DNA of 64,000 nucleotides from an uncultured Nitrospiraceae bacterium. GTDB lineage: Bacteria > Nitrospirota > Thermodesulfovibrionia > Thermodesulfovibrionales > Dissulfurispiraceae. Both the position numbers and the translations under genes were made by a program. Where the stretch lies: the NCBI GenBank assembly GCA_963727805.1, contig CAVSHF010000003.1:1024001-1088000 (forward strand), read 5' to 3'. How positions within the stretch are numbered: the first letter of the stretch is position 1; every line of letters starts with the position of its first letter. The notes beneath the pieces are model-generated. The model did not search any database, had not been told where the DNA came from, and saw only the letters and a list, made by a program, of their open reading frames with translations. Shown here piece after piece: positions 1 through 7,448 of this stretch.

Positions 1-292
1 TGCCCCCTCCCAAGCCAGCACCTGAGGGGATCTCCTTTGTCAAATATATCCGCGCCCCCTGGGTTGTTCCAGCAACCTCTCTAAGGGCGAGGGCAGCTTT
101 GAAGATGAGGTTCTGCTCAGCTGGGATTTTCATATCCGAATAAAGCTCGATAGCTGAAGACGGCTCAAGGGTGATAGTGTCATGAAGATCGATGCACTGC
201 ATAAGTGAAATGATGTTATGATATCCGTCGTCTCTCTTGTCAAGGACATATAACGACCAATTTATCTTGGCGGGCGGGGTCAGAGTGATCAT
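1..292 (-). CDS. ispE: 4-diphosphocytidyl-2-C-methyl-D-erythritol kinase (5' part, runs off window)
   Basis: Manual translation MITLTPPAKINWSLYVLDKRDDGYHNIISLMQCI...KEIPSGAGLGGG shows PAKIN, RxDGYH and the GHMP kinase GAGLGGG motif; not in the ORF track. Confidence 0.92.
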   Translation of the reverse strand, partial: MITLTPPAKINWSLYVLDKRDDGYHNIISLMQCIDLHDTITLEPSSAIELYSDMKIPAEQNLIFKAALALREVAGTTQGARIYLTKEIPSGAGLGGG

Positions 293-328
293 AACGACAT
301 TTCGCAGATCATTCAGGTAAAGAATGCG

Positions 329-2062
329 TCATTTAATATTGTGTTTTGCTTTGAGCTTTAAAATCTTCTCTTCAACCCTCTCCTTGACTCCCTCTTCCTT
401 CTCATGGAACTTTAAGGCATTGTTCCATGCATCGAGCGCTTCGTTGGGATTTCCCATCGCCTCATAAACATCGCCAAGATGCTCATAGAGAACAGGATCG
501 TCATTGACCGATCCGAGGGCTTTCCTGAGATACTTGAGTGCTTCCTTTTGTTTGCCGAGCTTGAAATAAACCCAACCGAGGCTGTCGATAATATAGCCGC
601 TGTCAGGTTTGAGATCGAGCGCTTTCTGAATAAGGGACAGTGCCTCCTGCAAATGAATCCCCTTGTCCGCGTAACTGAATCCAAGATAATTCAGGGCATC
701 TGCATGCTTCGGGTTGATCTCAATCACCTTTTTCAGAGAGGCAACCATATCATCAAAATGGCCAGTCTTCTCGTCCAGGACTGCCGCAGTGAAATAGAGC
801 TCATCATTGTCTTTGAAGAGATCGAGTCCCCTTTTTAAAACCTCTTCGGCCTTCTTGTAATCCTTCGCCTGAATATAAATGTTACCAAGCTGGCTGAAAA
901 TCTCAGGTTTCGTCTGATCGAAGGTAAGTAGTTCCTCGTAGACCTTCGCAGCATCAGAAAGATGGTTCAGCTTCGTGTAGATAAACGCCAGCGTCAGGAA
1001 GGCATTTAAGTTCTTTGGATCCAGGACAAGTATCTTCTTAAGTTCAACGATTGCCTCATCATAGCGTTTCAGTTCATCAAGGGCAAGGGACAGATAATAG
1101 TGAGCAGCAATATCATCAGGCTTGGCAGTCGTGACAAGCCTAAACTCAGAAACAGCCCTGTCATACTCATGTTCCTGAAGATAGAGCATTCCAAGCTTGG
1201 CATGAATGTCTACATTGGGGATATTTCTGGCGATCTCTTCAAGTTCCTTGACCGCCTTGTCGTATGACTTCCCTGAAATATACAACTGGGCGAGTCGCTC
1301 CCTAATAAAGACATCCTGGGGATTCAACTCCAAAGCCTTCCGATAATACTCCTCCGCTACCTTTAGATTGCCCTTTATCTCATTCACCAGCCCGAGGTTT
1401 AGATATGCCGCCTCAAAAGATGGGTTGATCTCGATAATTTTTTTAAACTGCTCCTCGGCAGCCTCATATTTCTTTTTTTCTACATAGATCGTACCAAGAT
1501 AATAGATAGCCATGAGATTATCAGGAGCCTTATCAAGGACTTGCTGGAAGAATTTCTGGCCCTTCTCGAAATCATGCTTCGAAGCATAGAGAACCCCGAG
1601 GAAGAGAAGTGTCTCGGTCTTTTCCGGTTCAATCTTCAAGGCCCTTTCATACATGGCGATGGCATCATCAACTCTCTTCTGCGAATTGTAGAGTTCTCCA
1701 AGGTACATCATTGCGGGAACATAATCAGGACTTTCTTTAAGAACTTCCTCCAGCCTTACAATCGCTTCCGTTATTCTGTCCAATTTCACCAGCATGCGTC
1801 CGGTCTGGGTCTTGAGGTAAGCCGATGACGGGTCGAATTTGAGCGCATTCGCGTAATTGTTCAGCGCTTCTTCCCACTTACCGTTGATCTCATTTTCGTA
1901 TCCAAGCAGGTATTCAATATCTGCCTTCTGCTGGACAGGGATTGGAAGATTTTCAGTCGTGCCACCCGAGGTTTGTATTTTTTCGGCTGCACTGCATGAA
2001 ACGGAGACAAAAACAGTCACAAAAAAAAGTAGAAATAAAGAAAGAGCTAATTTTACCGCCAT
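329..2062 (-). CDS. Tetratricopeptide-repeat envelope protein with signal peptide
   Basis: 577 aa, hydrophobic N-terminus, many TPRs, C-terminal ALNYLGFSYAD...IIDSLGWVYF typical of TPR proteins upstream of ispE. Confidence 0.88.
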   Translation of the reverse strand: MAVKLALSLFLLFFVTVFVSVSCSAAEKIQTSGGTTENLPIPVQQKADIEYLLGYENEINGKWEEALNNYANALKFDPSSAYLKTQTGRMLVKLDRITEAIVRLEEVLKESPDYVPAMMYLGELYNSQKRVDDAIAMYERALKIEPEKTETLLFLGVLYASKHDFEKGQKFFQQVLDKAPDNLMAIYYLGTIYVEKKKYEAAEEQFKKIIEINPSFEAAYLNLGLVNEIKGNLKVAEEYYRKALELNPQDVFIRERLAQLYISGKSYDKAVKELEEIARNIPNVDIHAKLGMLYLQEHEYDRAVSEFRLVTTAKPDDIAAHYYLSLALDELKRYDEAIVELKKILVLDPKNLNAFLTLAFIYTKLNHLSDAAKVYEELLTFDQTKPEIFSQLGNIYIQAKDYKKAEEVLKRGLDLFKDNDELYFTAAVLDEKTGHFDDMVASLKKVIEINPKHADALNYLGFSYADKGIHLQEALSLIQKALDLKPDSGYIIDSLGWVYFKLGKQKEALKYLRKALGSVNDDPVLYEHLGDVYEAMGNPNEALDAWNNALKFHEKEEGVKERVEEKILKLKAKHNIK

Positions 2063-2097
2063 AATAATATCACCCCGGGGTCTGATTCAGAATCCTA

Positions 2098-2126
2098 AAA
2101 TAAATGGGGTCCCATCGGACCCCATG
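2098..2126 (-). terminator. Rho-independent terminator after the small peptide gene
   Basis: Stem ATGGGGTC/GACCCCAT followed by TTATTTT on the minus strand. Confidence 0.7.
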
Positions 2127-2153
2127 TGACTTGACTGCGATAGTCTTAAATGC

Positions 2154-2216
2154 TCAGCAAGAACCTTTACACTTGCAGGTCAGTGACACTTTTTTAGAAA
2201 CTTTTTTGATGATCAT
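2154..2216 (-). CDS. Putative RiPP precursor peptide, 20 aa (MIIKKVSKKVSLTCKCKGSC)
   Basis: ATG with GAAGGGGG RBS 7 nt upstream; Lys-rich leader plus CxCxxxC tail; 45 nt downstream of the radical SAM gene on the same strand; followed by a terminator. Confidence 0.75.
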   Translation of the reverse strand: MIIKKVSKKVSLTCKCKGSC

Positions 2217-2261
2217 CGGGTTTCCCCCTTCTTAGGGTATTGACAGGCTTCATGCCCGTTT

Positions 2262-3440
2262 TTATTTAATTATACCATAATGAAAGCATTTGTAAAGGTC
2301 ACGCTCTATGCCTGCAACCATGTCAATTCCCTCCTTATCTTTACCCGAAATCATGGAGGCGCGATAACGACATCCCCCTCTGCAATCATCAATCACCCCG
2401 CACAATAATCGGGCGCACTCAAGGTCCTGCAGGTTCACCGGCGTAATTCGCTTCCAGGCATCACTTAGCCCTTTGCCGATGGTTCCAGCAGGTCTGTGGG
2501 AATAAAATGCACATTTACAGATTTCCCCCGCAGCGAGCACCGCTGCAAGGTGAAGACCGCACCCAAAACCCTCGCCGCCGCCATGCAATCCCCCGCCGAA
2601 TCCATAATCGAGAAACTTGCCGCCGATCGCGGGAGTCACCTGAAGCATGTCATTATCTTTAAATCTCCCTTCCGGGCAGGGCACATCTACAGTCCAATCA
2701 CGGATGCCAAGCCCTTGAAAAAGATGTTCCATCTCATCGAACTCGGTCTGATTCTCACGGTGTACCATGGTCGCAACCGAAACCGGCATTCCAAAACCAA
2801 GAGCCATCTCAACAGTCTTGATTACCTTCCGAAAAGTTCCTTTTCCCCTGAGTGTATCGTGACCGTGCTCCATTCCGTCGATACTTAACTGTATCTCGTC
2901 AACATGCAGTTTACTTAAAAGGTTTTGATCAAGCAGAAGACCGTTGGTAAACAATATTTTTCTGTACGCATATTCAGGCAAGAGAGCATTGACCTCCTCA
3001 AAATGGCTGTGCATCAGCGGTTCGCCGCCAGTAATCAATAGGCGGAGTCCTTGCATGTTTTCGAACTCATCAAGCACGGATTTCAATTGCGGAATTGTCA
3101 GTTCCCTATTTCGTGGAACTCCAATGTAACAATGCCGGCACCTCAGATTGCACTTGTCGGTAATTTGAAGTTCGAGATAACGCAATGAGGGCGCTGGAGA
3201 CAAGTTAACAGGTGGCCGTTTTATAGCAACAGGATTTGTGGTTAATATCCCTTCAGAGAGGCAATACTCGATAAATTCAGTCTCAGCTTCATTTGGATCG
3301 CCCCCTTCCAGAGTCGTGCACTCCCTCAGATAGCAGAAAGCCCCGTCATCAAGCTCATACAGTTCGTCTTTCTTTATGTCATAGAGAGACGGGATTTCGA
3401 GCCATTTCAGGACGAACCCTTCGGAAAGACGATATCTCAC
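2262..3440 (-). CDS. Radical SAM/SPASM protein with N-terminal RRE/PqqD-like region; putative peptide maturase
   Basis: CNLRCRHC motif, ITGGEPL, C-terminal Cys-rich SPASM (CGLHL..GEICKC..C..C..DCRGGCRYRA..YKC), about 80-aa N-terminal extension. Confidence 0.88.
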   Translation of the reverse strand: MRYRLSEGFVLKWLEIPSLYDIKKDELYELDDGAFCYLRECTTLEGGDPNEAETEFIEYCLSEGILTTNPVAIKRPPVNLSPAPSLRYLELQITDKCNLRCRHCYIGVPRNRELTIPQLKSVLDEFENMQGLRLLITGGEPLMHSHFEEVNALLPEYAYRKILFTNGLLLDQNLLSKLHVDEIQLSIDGMEHGHDTLRGKGTFRKVIKTVEMALGFGMPVSVATMVHRENQTEFDEMEHLFQGLGIRDWTVDVPCPEGRFKDNDMLQVTPAIGGKFLDYGFGGGLHGGGEGFGCGLHLAAVLAAGEICKCAFYSHRPAGTIGKGLSDAWKRITPVNLQDLECARLLCGVIDDCRGGCRYRASMISGKDKEGIDMVAGIERDLYKCFHYGIIK

Positions 3441-3443
3441 AAA

Positions 3444-5879
3444 TTAAGGAGGCGTGATCTGGGAAATGTGCCAGATATTATCAGCGTATTCATTGATCGC
3501 CCGGTCGCTTGAGAATTTCCCCGAACGCGCCATATTAAGAATAGCCATTTTCGTCCAACGCTCTTTGTCCCCGTAAGCTAGCGCCACATCATCCTGGCAA
3601 TGAATATAGGATTCAAAATCAGCGAGGACAAAAAACCGGTCTCCGTCGAGGAGCGTCCTGACTATTGGATGGAAAAGGGCCGTATCATCGGGAGAAAAAT
3701 ATCCTTCCAGAAGCTGGTTGATTATTCGATGCAACACTGGATTTTTCTCATAGTAATGATGGGGATTATATCCATGCCTCATCTCCATGATTTCTCCGGC
3801 GGTCAGCCCAAAAAGGAAAAAATTATCCTCTCCCACCTCTTCGCGTATTTCCACATTCGCTCCGTCAAGAGTCCCGATCGTCAGGGCACCGTTCAATGCG
3901 AACTTCATGTTCCCTGTGCCGGAGGCCTCAAAGCCAGCCGTCGAGATTTGTTCCGAAAGCTCGGCGGCCGGCATGATTCTCTGGGCAAGAGTCACGCCGT
4001 AATTCGGGACAAAAACCACTTTAAGCAGCGAACGTGTCCTGGGATCTCTTTCGATTGCCTCGCTTACATTGTGAATCAGCTTTATGATCAGTTTGCACAA
4101 ATAATAGCCCGGCGCTGATTTTCCCGCAAAGAGGACTGTCCGCGGAGTGAACAGCCCATCGTCTTTTCCATCCCGGAGACGATTATACAGAGTAATGATG
4201 TGGAAGATATTGAGGAGCTGACGCTTGTATTCGTGAAACCTCTTGACCTGACAGTCCAGCAGAAAGTCTGGCGGGATCGAGAGTCCCGATGTCTTTTCGA
4301 GATGTCCCGAGAGCGAGGTTTTGTTCGCCTCTTTTACCTTGCGAAAACGGCTCCGGAATTCTGAATCGTCGGCGAAAGGTTCGATTCGTTTCAGTTCATC
4401 GAGGTCTTTCATCCACTTTTCGCCGATAACTTCGGTTATCAGGCATGAAAGCCGCCTATTGCCTTCTATGAGCCACCGACGGGGCGTGATGCCGTTAGTC
4501 ACGTTCCTGAACTTGCCGGGGTACATGGTATGAAAGTCGGGGAAAACGTTTTCTTTCAATATCTCTGTGTGGAGCCACGACACTCCGTTTACCGCATGGC
4601 TTCCTACAATAGCAAGGCGCGCCATATTGACCCATCGTTCGCCGTCTCCGGTTATAACAGACATTTTCATCCTTCGGTCAGGCTCATCCTTAAAATTCTC
4701 ACCAACCTGAATGAGAAATCTTCTGTCAATCTCACGTATTATCTGCATATGCCGGGGGAGCAGGTGCCCCATCAGTCCTTCTGACCAGGTCTCGAGCGCC
4801 TCGGGTAGGATCGTATGGTTCGTATAGGCAAAGCTCTTCGTAGTTATGTTCCATGCATCATCCCATTCGAGATCGTCTTCATCGACCAGAATACGCATTA
4901 GTTCAGGAATAGCGATGGAAGGATGTGTGTCATTAAGCTGGATTGCCACCTTGTCAGGGAACTCATCATATTTTTGATGAAATTTCCTATAACGCCGTAT
5001 GATGTCCCTGAGCGTGGCACTCACAAAGAAAAATTGCTGTTTCAGCCTCAATTCCTTACCGGCGACCGACTGGTCATCGGGGTACAACACCTTTGAAATG
5101 TTCTCGCTTACCGTCTTATCCTCAACTGCCTTCACGTAATCTCCGCTGTTGAAGTATTCGAGATTGAACTCCCTCGATGATTTCGCCGCCCATAGCCTGA
5201 GAGTATTCACAGTATCGTTCTTAAAGCCGGGCACCGGATAGTCATATGCCATGGCCATGACATCCTCGGTGTCAACCCATTGCATGCGCAACCTTGCGTC
5301 ACTGCCGATGAGAGTCTTGACATTACCATAAAACTTTACAGGAGAGAGCACTTCGGGGCGCGGGATTTCCCATGGATTGCCATACCTGAGCCAGCTATCT
5401 GGTGCTTCGATCTGGTAACCGTTCTTTATGCGCTGAGAAAATATCCCGTATTCGTAGCGGATGCCATAACCATATCCAGGGTAACCAAGAGTTGCCATCG
5501 AATCAAGGAAGCAGGCGGCAAGCCTTCCCAGTCCGCCGTTGCCGAGACCAGCATCCTCTTCAAGATCGGCAAGTTCATCATAAGTCATCCCGAGGACATT
5601 CGCCGCATAACGGTAATCATCGACAAGACCGAGGTTAGTGATGTTGCTTTCAAGCAGCTTGCCCATCATGAATTCAAGGGACAAATAATAAACCCTCTTG
5701 GCATTACAGTTATAATAATGTTGCTGGGTGTTGATCCAGCGCTCGATGAGAAGATCCCTGACAGAAAGAGAAAAACTGATGAATTTGTCCCTCTCAGTGG
5801 CCGAATAACGGTCCTTGGCGATCGAATAGATTAGATGATCGACGATAGCTTTATGAAAAAACTGGAACGAATCACTCAT
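3444..5879 (-). CDS. glgP: Glycogen/starch phosphorylase
   Basis: GLGNGGLGRLAACFLDS, QLNDTHP, KRFHEYKRQ, EASGTGNMKF (PLP lysine). Confidence 0.98.
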   Translation of the reverse strand: MSDSFQFFHKAIVDHLIYSIAKDRYSATERDKFISFSLSVRDLLIERWINTQQHYYNCNAKRVYYLSLEFMMGKLLESNITNLGLVDDYRYAANVLGMTYDELADLEEDAGLGNGGLGRLAACFLDSMATLGYPGYGYGIRYEYGIFSQRIKNGYQIEAPDSWLRYGNPWEIPRPEVLSPVKFYGNVKTLIGSDARLRMQWVDTEDVMAMAYDYPVPGFKNDTVNTLRLWAAKSSREFNLEYFNSGDYVKAVEDKTVSENISKVLYPDDQSVAGKELRLKQQFFFVSATLRDIIRRYRKFHQKYDEFPDKVAIQLNDTHPSIAIPELMRILVDEDDLEWDDAWNITTKSFAYTNHTILPEALETWSEGLMGHLLPRHMQIIREIDRRFLIQVGENFKDEPDRRMKMSVITGDGERWVNMARLAIVGSHAVNGVSWLHTEILKENVFPDFHTMYPGKFRNVTNGITPRRWLIEGNRRLSCLITEVIGEKWMKDLDELKRIEPFADDSEFRSRFRKVKEANKTSLSGHLEKTSGLSIPPDFLLDCQVKRFHEYKRQLLNIFHIITLYNRLRDGKDDGLFTPRTVLFAGKSAPGYYLCKLIIKLIHNVSEAIERDPRTRSLLKVVFVPNYGVTLAQRIMPAAELSEQISTAGFEASGTGNMKFALNGALTIGTLDGANVEIREEVGEDNFFLFGLTAGEIMEMRHGYNPHHYYEKNPVLHRIINQLLEGYFSPDDTALFHPIVRTLLDGDRFFVLADFESYIHCQDDVALAYGDKERWTKMAILNMARSGKFSSDRAINEYADNIWHISQITPP

Positions 5880-5951
5880 GTTCCCCCCATTTAGGTTTAA
5901 TATACCACAGTTTATTGTCTGAAAGACAAAGAATCTGATAAACTTTTCGTC

Positions 5952-7448
5952 ATGACCGAACTACATATGCCGGCTTTCCCTGACGATCATGAGAAAGAAG
6001 TCTATCAGGTGATCATCAGCAGGCTTGAAGGTGCGCAGATCTCCGATGCCAAATACCGGCAGAGGCAATTTGAACTGATTGAAAAGGGAATAGGCGGGTT
6101 CATTCTCTTTGGCGGCGTCAGGGAGGAAATAAAAAAATTTCTAGCCGAGTTGCAGTCTCTCTCTCGCATCCCGCTTTTCATCGCTGCAGACATTGAACGC
6201 GGTGTAGGGCAGCAGGTTCAGGGAATGACTTCCTTCCCTTCCCACATGGCCTTTGCCGCGGCTATCGACCGGATAAAACAACAAGATCTCACTCTGCTTC
6301 ATCAGACAATCGAAGCAACAGCTGCCGAGGCAAGAGACATCGGTATCAATATGCCGCTCATCCCGGTCCTTGACGTAAACAGGAATCCTGATAATCCGAT
6401 CATATGCACGCGCGCCTTCTCGGATGATCCTGAACTAACAGCATGGTTCGGTTTCAACTATATCAGAATACTCGAAGGTAAAGGTCTTATTAGCTGCGCT
6501 AAACACTTTCCCGGGCATGGCGATACATCAACCGACTCCCATATTGCGCTGCCAGTGATTCGCAATAATAGAGACGATCTCATCAGTGTGGATTTATTCC
6601 CCTTTCGCATGGCCATTAAAGAAAAAGTAAGCAGTATTATGATCGGACACTTAAGTGTGCCTGCTCTCGATTCAAGACCTTCTAGCCTTTCACATAAAAT
6701 CATAACAGGCCTGTTAAAAGATGAGCTGGGTTTTACAGGTCTGGTGCTTACCGATGCCCTGAATATGCATGCCCTCAGGGAGTTCGGCGATGTTGGCCTG
6801 GAGTGCCTAAAGGCCGGTGCCGATATCCTCCTGCATCCTGACAATCCTAATGCGATGGCTGTAGAGTTGCTGTTAGCGCTCAAAGAAAAAAAGCTTGATC
6901 CCGGAATTCTTGACGCTATCGTCAAAAAGATCATCGATGCGAAGGCGGTCCTTAATCATGGCGCCGCTCCAGCGATCGATTTTGAGCGGCATGCGGTCCT
7001 GTCGAAAATGATCTCCCAAAAAGCAATCACATTGATCAAAAGTGCTCAAGGGCTTTTGCCTTTGTACGATTCCAGCGGAGTTCGTATTGTTTTTTCGGGA
7101 GAGAGTAAACATTTCGAGATCACTCCGCTAAAGGACTTCTTCTCTCCTTCTGGCGATTCGAATATCTTGCTGATTGCAATCTTTACGAGTGTTGCTGCCT
7201 GGAAGGGATCATCGGGGATCAGCAATGAGGAGAGGCTGAAATTAACTGGCCTTCTCAGAAGGGCGCGGAGGTCCATCGTCGTCTCCTTCGGAAGCCCTTA
7301 TGTGTTACGATATTTTAAGGATGCCGATGTCCTGATTGCAGCTTACGACCCGACAATACAAGCACAGCATGCAGTTCTGAATTGTTTGCGCGGAGCAAGT
7401 ACTTTTACTGGAAAGCTTCCCATCCATATACCCGAGGTGTCGACATAA
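5952..7448 (+). CDS. nagZ: GH3 beta-N-acetylglucosaminidase
   Basis: KHFPGHGDTSTDSH motif diagnostic of NagZ; GLVLTDAL. Confidence 0.9.
   Translation: MTELHMPAFPDDHEKEVYQVIISRLEGAQISDAKYRQRQFELIEKGIGGFILFGGVREEIKKFLAELQSLSRIPLFIAADIERGVGQQVQGMTSFPSHMAFAAAIDRIKQQDLTLLHQTIEATAAEARDIGINMPLIPVLDVNRNPDNPIICTRAFSDDPELTAWFGFNYIRILEGKGLISCAKHFPGHGDTSTDSHIALPVIRNNRDDLISVDLFPFRMAIKEKVSSIMIGHLSVPALDSRPSSLSHKIITGLLKDELGFTGLVLTDALNMHALREFGDVGLECLKAGADILLHPDNPNAMAVELLLALKEKKLDPGILDAIVKKIIDAKAVLNHGAAPAIDFERHAVLSKMISQKAITLIKSAQGLLPLYDSSGVRIVFSGESKHFEITPLKDFFSPSGDSNILLIAIFTSVAAWKGSSGISNEERLKLTGLLRRARRSIVVSFGSPYVLRYFKDADVLIAAYDPTIQAQHAVLNCLRGASTFTGKLPIHIPEVST

Follow-up and report, generated by a model that had tools for sequence, protein, structure and literature searches.

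Organization of the locus

The window analyzed here is the whole stretch of 64,000 nucleotides, and positions below are counted from its first letter; the genome it belongs to has 3.89 Mb, is 100% complete and carries one enzyme copy and one peptide copy. On the minus strand, the genes follow the order glycogen phosphorylase (3444-5879), a single-copy radical SAM/SPASM enzyme of 392 amino acids with a GTG start (2262..3440), a 20-codon ORF (2154..2216), a terminator-like hairpin, a 577-amino-acid TPR protein (329-2062) and an ispE-like gene (2-292), the last two forming the block downstream of the peptide. The glycogen phosphorylase gene ends 3 nt before the GTG of the enzyme with no evident ribosome-binding site between them, but this proximity is incidental, since the two are adjacent in 4 of 123 loci. 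The 20-codon ORF starts 45 nt after the enzyme's stop, is preceded by the ribosome-binding site GAAGGGGG (2224..2231, minus strand, overlapping leader hairpin 2) and is followed by an intrinsic-terminator-like hairpin and a T run (2095..2125, minus strand; 9 pairs between 2125 and 2104). The coordinates and motifs listed in the original prediction are all present in the sequence; the third gene, the promoter-like site and the leader hairpins described below were not part of it.

A conserved peptide gene

The peptide consists of a basic N-terminal stretch of 13 residues and, in the window copy, a C-K-C-K-G-S-C terminus; the pattern conserved among its homologs is M-x-I-K/R-K-V...C-K-C-K-x-S-C-stop. 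It adjoins the enzyme in 40 of 41 loci, a count that includes the locus of the window and in which at least one genome appears twice; the single miss is a truncated contig. The gene is located 3' of the enzyme in Nitrospirota and 5' of it in many Desulfobacterota (27 of 30 loci). The idea that homologous enzymes are accompanied by a conserved short peptide was thereby borne out, and the reversed DNA pattern, used as a control, occurred in 0 of 301 Nitrospirota genomes.

We then compared 87 distinct DNA copies. The start codon lies exactly 13 residues ahead of the first Cys (86 ATG and 1 GTG), a spacing that was not imposed by the search pattern; what the pattern required was C-K/R-C-x-x-S/T-C-stop and I/V at position 3. 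The conserved residues are encoded by alternative codons, and the stops are TAA in 43 copies, TGA in 25 and TAG in 19. Because three stop codons are in use, the TGA of the window is no selenocysteine codon, and read-through at this position was ruled out. The peptides have 19-20 residues (19 in family f5) and three Cys, contain no aromatic residue for C-C cyclophane chemistry, and showed no signal peptide. Three of four RNA runs with shares of 0.06-0.09 were compared with the locus; one 151-nt contig of one run spans 2125-2275, shows neither strand nor level and gives no evidence of expression. Carriage on mobile elements was rejected: no plasmid match was obtained at E 1e-40, and 0 of 65 viral pattern hits were peptide genes. 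From this pattern of conservation, we take the 20-codon ORF to be a real, unannotated gene, which annotation pipelines miss in more than 100 genomes.

As originally supposed, the peptide lies outside recognized precursor families: 27 peptides yielded 0 NCBIfam families, and the peptide is absent from the 3,421-precursor table of PMC10288494. The searchable supplement files of PMC7470986 and the supplements of PMC12710340 gave no match either. None of the papers searched contains CKCKGSC, CKCKSSC, CKCKASC or CKCKKSC as a terminal motif, and no description of the system was found among them (subscription papers and bioRxiv supplements were outside the search).

Additional copies were seen in a few genomes. 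Tandem duplicate peptide genes are present at L062:824-883 and 990-1049, one with His for Lys17; both have a leader hairpin and a terminator of their own. Genomes G020 and G029 have second, unlinked copies.

Sequence and predicted structure of the enzyme

The CxxxCxxC radical SAM motif (Cys97, 101 and 104; 3129..3152, minus strand) and the Cys-rich SPASM region (Cys294, 310, 342, 347, 353, 357 and 385; 2286..2561, minus strand) are both present as originally described. The seven SPASM Cys have canonical spacing and are invariant in 97 of 97 sequences and in 41-42 of 42 distant representatives; the three radical SAM Cys are also invariant, and there is no conserved eighth SPASM ligand. Cys255 is kept in only 76 of 97 sequences and 18 of 42 distant representatives, His297 in 95 of 97 and 39 of 42, and His286 is nearly conserved too. 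The latter is located in the Gly-rich stretch at residues 279-295, which had been regarded as an unusual linker but is a low-confidence loop ahead of the SPASM domain and no special feature of the window copy.

Radical_SAM (PF04055) is the sole Pfam family over its cut-off (73.9 bits vs 29.5), and TIGR04085 (SPASM) reaches 24.2 bits, just below its cut-off of 27. In the comparison with TIGRFAM-type models, no curated family attains its cut-off: the 25 best NCBIfam models are all far under theirs, from 106.7 bits vs 650 for the best to 52.7 bits for the 25th, and four archaeal homologs likewise matched no NCBIfam model at cut-off. When the profile of the 97 sequences was searched against 1.84 billion representatives, the enzyme formed a discrete clade with near-full-length members at about 250-510 bits and other radical SAM proteins at about 227 bits or less. 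Promethearchaeota, Aenigmarchaeota, Archaeoglobi and Methanosarcinales are among the 20 clade representatives looked up.

The structural model of the enzyme has a pLDDT of 93. Its N-terminal extension of about 80 residues, where an RRE had been proposed, contains a predicted RRE-like domain (approximately residues 1-70; 3231..3440, minus strand) of three strands followed by helices, with pLDDT about 95. The best fold match is SkfB (Z 26.1, rmsd 5.3, 331 aligned, model residues 7-378), followed by SuiB over the whole length (Z 25.8, rmsd 4.0, 361 aligned, model residues 2-390), anSME (Z 24.4) and CteB (Z 24.2, rmsd 3.0, 283 aligned). SkfB, SuiB and CteB carry RRE domains. The modeled RRE-like N-terminus aligns with the N-termini of SkfB and SuiB, while the C-terminal region aligns structurally with SuiB, anSME and CteB. 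For residues 1-84, the nearest Atlas clusters are PqqD at 0.90, which is a lead. The hits share only 152-154 features, and Pfam gave no PqqD hit in the enzyme.

Co-inheritance of three genes

The relatives are titled Nitrospirota, mostly Dissulfurispiraceae. Among 301 Nitrospirota genomes, the enzyme is present in 130 (threshold E 1e-40) and the CKCKxSC-stop DNA pattern in 125; 124 genomes have both, 170 have neither and 7 have one only. In 101 of the 124 the two genes are adjacent, whereas in 23, including all 11 genomes of family f5, they are unlinked by their coordinates, and 20 of 20 unlinked pattern hits examined were intact peptide genes. The seven discordant genomes comprise one with the peptide only and six with the enzyme only, of which two have it at contig ends, two are 63-65% complete, and two (G191 and G200, 98-100% complete) possess neither the peptide pattern nor the third protein described below. 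In 301 Desulfobacterota genomes, the enzyme was found in 35, and a looser peptide pattern in 34 of these 35, against a background of 17 of 266 enzyme-less genomes and 25 of 301 in the reversed control (counted by eye). In metagenomes, 21 of 34 loci of the enzyme family contain the peptide; many of the other 13 are short and three are long. Loci of other radical SAM families carry it in 0 of 46 cases, with one spurious match on the opposite strand. Since the genomes are related by kinship, the co-occurrence counts are overstated, and they describe rather than test.

The system had been viewed as a minimal one of two genes, but a seven-cysteine protein is inherited along with them. It is present in 123 of the 301 Nitrospirota genomes, 120 of which have the enzyme; in other words, it accompanies the enzyme in 120 of 130 genomes, with 10 having the enzyme only and 3 the third protein only. 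Peptide, enzyme and seven-Cys protein are co-inherited even when unlinked, in more than 100 Nitrospirota and Desulfobacterota genomes. The housekeeping-like role that had been hinted at agrees with this inheritance pattern across the Nitrospirota.

In our view the peptide is very probably the substrate of this enzyme. Points against our reading of the locus are G191 and G200, which have the enzyme without the peptide, and the 13 metagenome loci that show none.

Proposed modification of the peptide

On balance, we lean towards RRE-guided thioether cross-linking within C-K-C-K-x-S-C, giving an intracellular thioether RiPP. The predicted RRE domain would likely grip the basic N-terminus of the peptide, and the enzyme would then likely cross-link at least one of the three C-terminal cysteines as thioethers; given that the peptide is the substrate, thioether chemistry is the probable outcome. 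By the definitions in an excerpt of PMC10114670, the sactipeptide/ranthipeptide class comprises enzyme-installed thioethers from Cys to C-alpha, C-beta or C-gamma. The first auxiliary Fe-S cluster may have an open site that binds a peptide cysteine, by analogy with CteB, whose open Aux I site is bound by a substrate Cys according to part of PMC6231123. We infer the open site from the seven cysteines and the lack of a conserved eighth, although His297 could fill the fourth ligand position of the cluster. The acceptor would lie inside C-K-C-K-x-S-C, at the near-invariant Lys15 or at Ser19. In thermocellin, the acceptor is the Thr just after the CKTSC motif. Our peptide stops where that Thr would be, so the same bond cannot form here. 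CKTSC is found in SCIFF precursors (1937 rows of the PMC10288494 supplement), and with an 18-residue leader the reactive core Cys14 of PMC6231123 corresponds to the first Cys of this motif in the rows shown. Similarity in fold does not determine the chemistry, for the top matches include enzymes forming C-S bonds (SkfB and CteB), C-C bonds (SuiB) and formylglycine (anSME). The product would probably stay in the cell and may have a housekeeping function in anaerobes, in the handling of metals or redox.

The peptide ends with its last Cys, which leaves no room for a hairpin of downstream acceptors and makes chemistry at the C-terminus a serious alternative. The enzyme might act on the invariant C-terminal Cys by oxidative decarboxylation and ring closure, as MftC does, to give a small cofactor-like product after trimming. 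The stop after the third Cys in every copy (required by the pattern; 125 genomes found) and the single-copy, housekeeping-like inheritance without an exporter are consistent with this, and there is a precedent in MftC, which, as a section of PMC10288494 describes, acts on the last residue of the mycofactocin precursor. However, the mycofactocin maturase model gives 76 bits vs a cut-off of 265, no dedicated peptidase or oxidoreductase set co-occurs locally, and two further invariant Cys would be left unexplained. We thus consider such C-terminal chemistry rather unlikely.

A third protein with seven cysteines

The enzymes of loci L010 and L011 have about 120 extra, Cys-rich N-terminal residues that match a free-standing gene elsewhere in the genome of the window, outside the window itself and directly after cutA (G000:C3:2304255-2304599, or L074:1492-1836, minus strand). 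In 5 of 20 unlinked loci examined, an M29 aminopeptidase gene lies upstream. This third protein has about 105 amino acids and seven Cys that are invariant in 24 sequences. Seven distinct loci, among them L010 (3611-5152), encode it as a fusion with the enzyme, which argues that it is a subunit, and in many others the two genes are adjacent. In one lineage, a form of 55 residues and three Cys overlaps the start of the enzyme; a profile built from 15 such forms aligns with each half of the long protein in 12 of 24 cases (hhalign 95%), so the latter likely arose by tandem duplication.

Neither Pfam nor NCBIfam contains a family for the third protein, Atlas gave hypothetical clusters only, and no match was found among PDB sequences. 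Its model (pLDDT 81) reached a best Z of 2.5 among 48,161 chains and had no Foldseek match, which is no proof of a new fold. We regard it as a putative metal- or Fe-S-binding accessory subunit, a binding role read from its cysteines alone.

The surroundings of the third gene bear on another reading, in which Cys of the peptide is oxidized at C-beta to thiooxazole- or thioaldehyde-derived groups, as by enzymes of the SbtM/anSME type, and the sulfur is free for a metal such as copper. SbtM is itself a radical SAM/SPASM enzyme of an anaerobe and makes thio(seleno)oxazole (-4 Da) according to an extract of PMC9204691, anSME is among the top folds of our model (Z 24.4), and the third gene directly follows cutA in 12 of 20 unlinked loci examined. 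The cutA adjacency, however, is a single inherited arrangement in two families, the SbtM model scores 52.7 bits vs 350, and the Gly-Cys motif of SbtM substrates is absent from the peptide. A copper-export neighborhood was rejected as well, with a heavy-metal ATPase near only 1 of 20 unlinked peptide loci. Oxidation of this kind is unlikely in our judgment, and thioether cross-linking with the seven-Cys protein as a subunit is still the reading that we prefer.

Expression signals around the peptide gene

The peptide gene is more than a tail of the enzyme's operon, for it has a promoter-like site, a leader and a terminator of its own. A sigma-70-like promoter (TTTACA-16 nt-TG-n-TATAAT; 2269..2296, minus strand) is located within the last codons of the enzyme. 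It is followed on the same strand by hairpin 1 (ACGGGC-AUGAA-GCCUGU, 2243..2259), with a covarying stem in the alignment of leaders, and hairpin 2 (CCCU-AAGAA-GGGG, 2225..2237), which overlaps the ribosome-binding site. A scan of 38 loci gave 35 motif matches. In these, the Tyr codon under the promoter is always TAT and the next one GGT or GAT, and the following Ile codon is ATA in 31 of 35, compared with 26% ATA among Ile codons in the long frames of the genome. These fixed codons indicate that the constraint acts on DNA.

We searched 108 distinct upstream regions, with the motif defined after inspection and single-base shuffles as the control. An extended -10 box within 130 nt of the peptide start was present in 68 (mean of 15.6 and maximum of 26 in shuffles). 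Hairpins whose loop reads A(U/A)GA(A/G) occurred in 48 (mean 5.2, maximum 13), and at least two of them in 22 (mean 0.15, maximum 2). In an alignment of 31 leaders, pairing holds in 93.5% of cells, and both partners vary in 5 of the 6 base pairs of hairpin 1, though these leaders were chosen for showing hairpins and the selection leans towards structure. The leader covariance model gave 25 hits of at least 31 bits in 75 other genomes, 24 of which lie directly ahead of a peptide gene; 11 of these 24 are from genomes that did not contribute to the model. Hairpin 2 may partly reflect overlap with an extended Shine-Dalgarno sequence, but hairpin 1 cannot. Two leader-model hits of 22.6 bits (L228 and L229 in G624) illustrate this overlap of hairpin 2; they are presumably antisense to the 3' end of 16S rRNA.

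Rfam 15 yielded 0 leader matches in window positions 1-7000 at E up to 1. A leader regulon was rejected: the own genome has one strong hit (44 bits, itself in the model) and the next reaches 16 bits. No genome-wide enrichment of the loop was seen in a scan that required two Watson-Crick closing pairs and missed the window's own hairpin 2, and none of 38 weaker hits in relatives has two such hairpins. CsrA as the reader was discarded too, for no CsrA was found in the genome of the window. At contig ends of G199 (L224 and L225), a leader-like sequence occurs twice without a following peptide, at 34 and 27 bits. A similar double hairpin of 23-24 bits (L271, G090:C5:57308-57361; L272, G603:C76:6290-6343) precedes a TonB-dependent receptor in a cbiM/cobN-like cobalt-corrinoid cluster; the two loci are related and count as one event at most, a weak hint of metal-linked control or of a captured leader.

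Judged from these sequence signals, synthesis of the peptide would be abundant and translationally controlled. A promoter close to consensus, a strong ribosome-binding site and a terminator of its own imply that the peptide is made in excess. This would suit a peptide that is no end product but a consumed or recycled scaffold for the enzyme and the seven-Cys protein, either a sulfur donor or an Fe-S/metal carrier; the real target would then be the seven-Cys protein itself or some other molecule. CrpC, the subject of PMC13692751 and a member of another family (TIGR04463), shows that proteins rich in Cys can be cross-linked by radical SAM enzymes. Nevertheless, the seven loci with a fusion to the enzyme mark the third protein as a subunit and not a substrate, and the modeled RRE-like domain points to a leader-bearing peptide substrate. 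A scaffold is in our view quite improbable.

The hairpins over the ribosome-binding site, together with the Lys/Arg-rich N-terminus of the peptide, would also be compatible with autoregulation, the peptide being a small basic protein that binds RNA or associates with ribosomes and keeps its own leader hairpins repressed; modification by the enzyme, if any, would tune the repression. The lack of a CsrA in the genome would accord with this, as would family f5, where the peptide remains upstream of the TPR-ispE-prs housekeeping block while the enzyme sits elsewhere. But the peptide is absent from 176 of 301 Nitrospirota genomes, 124 of 125 pattern-positive genomes also hold the enzyme, and a basic leader is equally expected for RRE binding, which makes a repressor role very improbable beside that of an enzyme substrate.

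Neighboring genes

Among the neighbor families that recur in at least 3 of 123 loci (flanks of 1.5-4 kb), there was no exporter or peptidase, which extends to the relatives the original remark that no protease or exporter is adjacent. An ATP-grasp gene of no NCBIfam family, possibly an extra tailoring enzyme, adjoins the enzyme-peptide unit in 9 of 123 loci (e.g. L053:2793-3782 and L063:356-1261), all from the lineage with the 55-residue third protein; it was not found in the genome of the window. A rubrerythrin-like gene is nearby in 9 of 123 loci (L035, L038, L040, L041, L098, L101, L107, L115 and L173) and a 2-oxoacid:ferredoxin oxidoreductase subunit in 9 others. The hints of metal handling, namely the cutA adjacency, the leader-like element at the cobalt-corrinoid locus and rubrerythrin, are weak and confounded by kinship.

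Significance

Most known radical SAM RiPPs are patchy in distribution and exported. The present system is single-copy, most Thermodesulfovibrio-related genomes retain it even where its three genes have drifted apart, and this retention, together with the occurrence of the enzyme in several archaeal groups, is the pattern of cofactor pathways. It is possible, though less likely than not, that anaerobic bacteria and archaea share an ancient pathway of three proteins here. The enzyme and a new-fold seven-Cys subunit would convert the abundant peptide of 20 residues into a novel cofactor that works inside the cell, by binding metal or in redox reactions, and contains a cysteine linkage of a new kind; its supply would be set by a protein that reads the A(U/A)GAA leader. 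With a synthetic substrate of 20 residues, an enzyme of 392 and a partner of 105, the system offers a cheap and direct route to new radical chemistry, and possibly to a novel fold that binds Fe-S clusters or metals and to a novel element of translational control in anaerobes that have been little studied.

Comparison with known systems

The sactipeptide maturases SkfB, AlbA and StsB resemble our enzyme in that SkfB is the best whole-protein fold, N-terminal domain included, and in their short Cys-rich substrates; StsA, in particular, has a CxCxC core according to an excerpt of PMC10288494. Unlike our enzyme, SkfB has a Twitch domain, the StsB model scores the enzyme at 62 bits vs 625, and there is here no downstream acceptor half, exporter or protease. 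Desac_0107 is listed as a putative sactipeptide enzyme in part of PMC4289311. Mycofactocin (MftA-MftB-MftC) and PQQ (PqqA-PqqD-PqqE) likewise have a short precursor with a strict C-terminus, a radical SAM/SPASM enzyme, a small accessory protein and an intracellular role. However, the predicted RRE is fused to the enzyme here, the accessory protein is Cys-rich, of no known fold and not an RRE, and the peptide ends in Ser-Cys without a Val-Tyr or Glu-Tyr motif (TIGR03962, 76.1 bits vs 265). SbtA/SbtM (TIGR04082) shares a Cys-modifying radical SAM/SPASM maturase and deltaproteobacterial anaerobes as hosts, but differs in score (52.7 bits vs 350), and our peptide has no Gly-Cys motif and no selenocysteine recoding.

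The leader resembles CsrA/RsmA-type operators: short hairpins stand in tandem, their five-base loops are rich in purines, and the last hairpin covers the ribosome-binding site. Its loop is A(U/A)GAA, whereas theirs contains GGA, and there is one strong copy per genome.

With SCIFF/thermocellin (CteA-CteB, TIGR03974), the system shares the RRE-radical SAM-SPASM architecture (CteB, Z 24.2), seven SPASM Cys, a basic start of the M-K-x-I-K type, C-K-(T/S/G/A)-S-C in the peptide, anaerobic hosts and no obvious exporter. In contrast, our peptide has 19-20 residues and three Cys and ends at the motif, while SCIFF has about 45 residues, six Cys and further residues after the motif; the enzyme family profile gives only 62 bits to CteB, and TIGR03974 is outside the best 25 NCBIfam models. 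We know of no SCIFF counterpart to the seven-Cys third protein and the hairpin leader. The system is thus SCIFF-like in its C-K-x-S-C motif, but is no SCIFF member. With a radical SAM domain, a seven-Cys SPASM region, a predicted RRE and a co-inherited short precursor, it has the broad features of its class, and by its sequence the locus appears to work like a radical SAM RiPP pathway that belongs to no described family.
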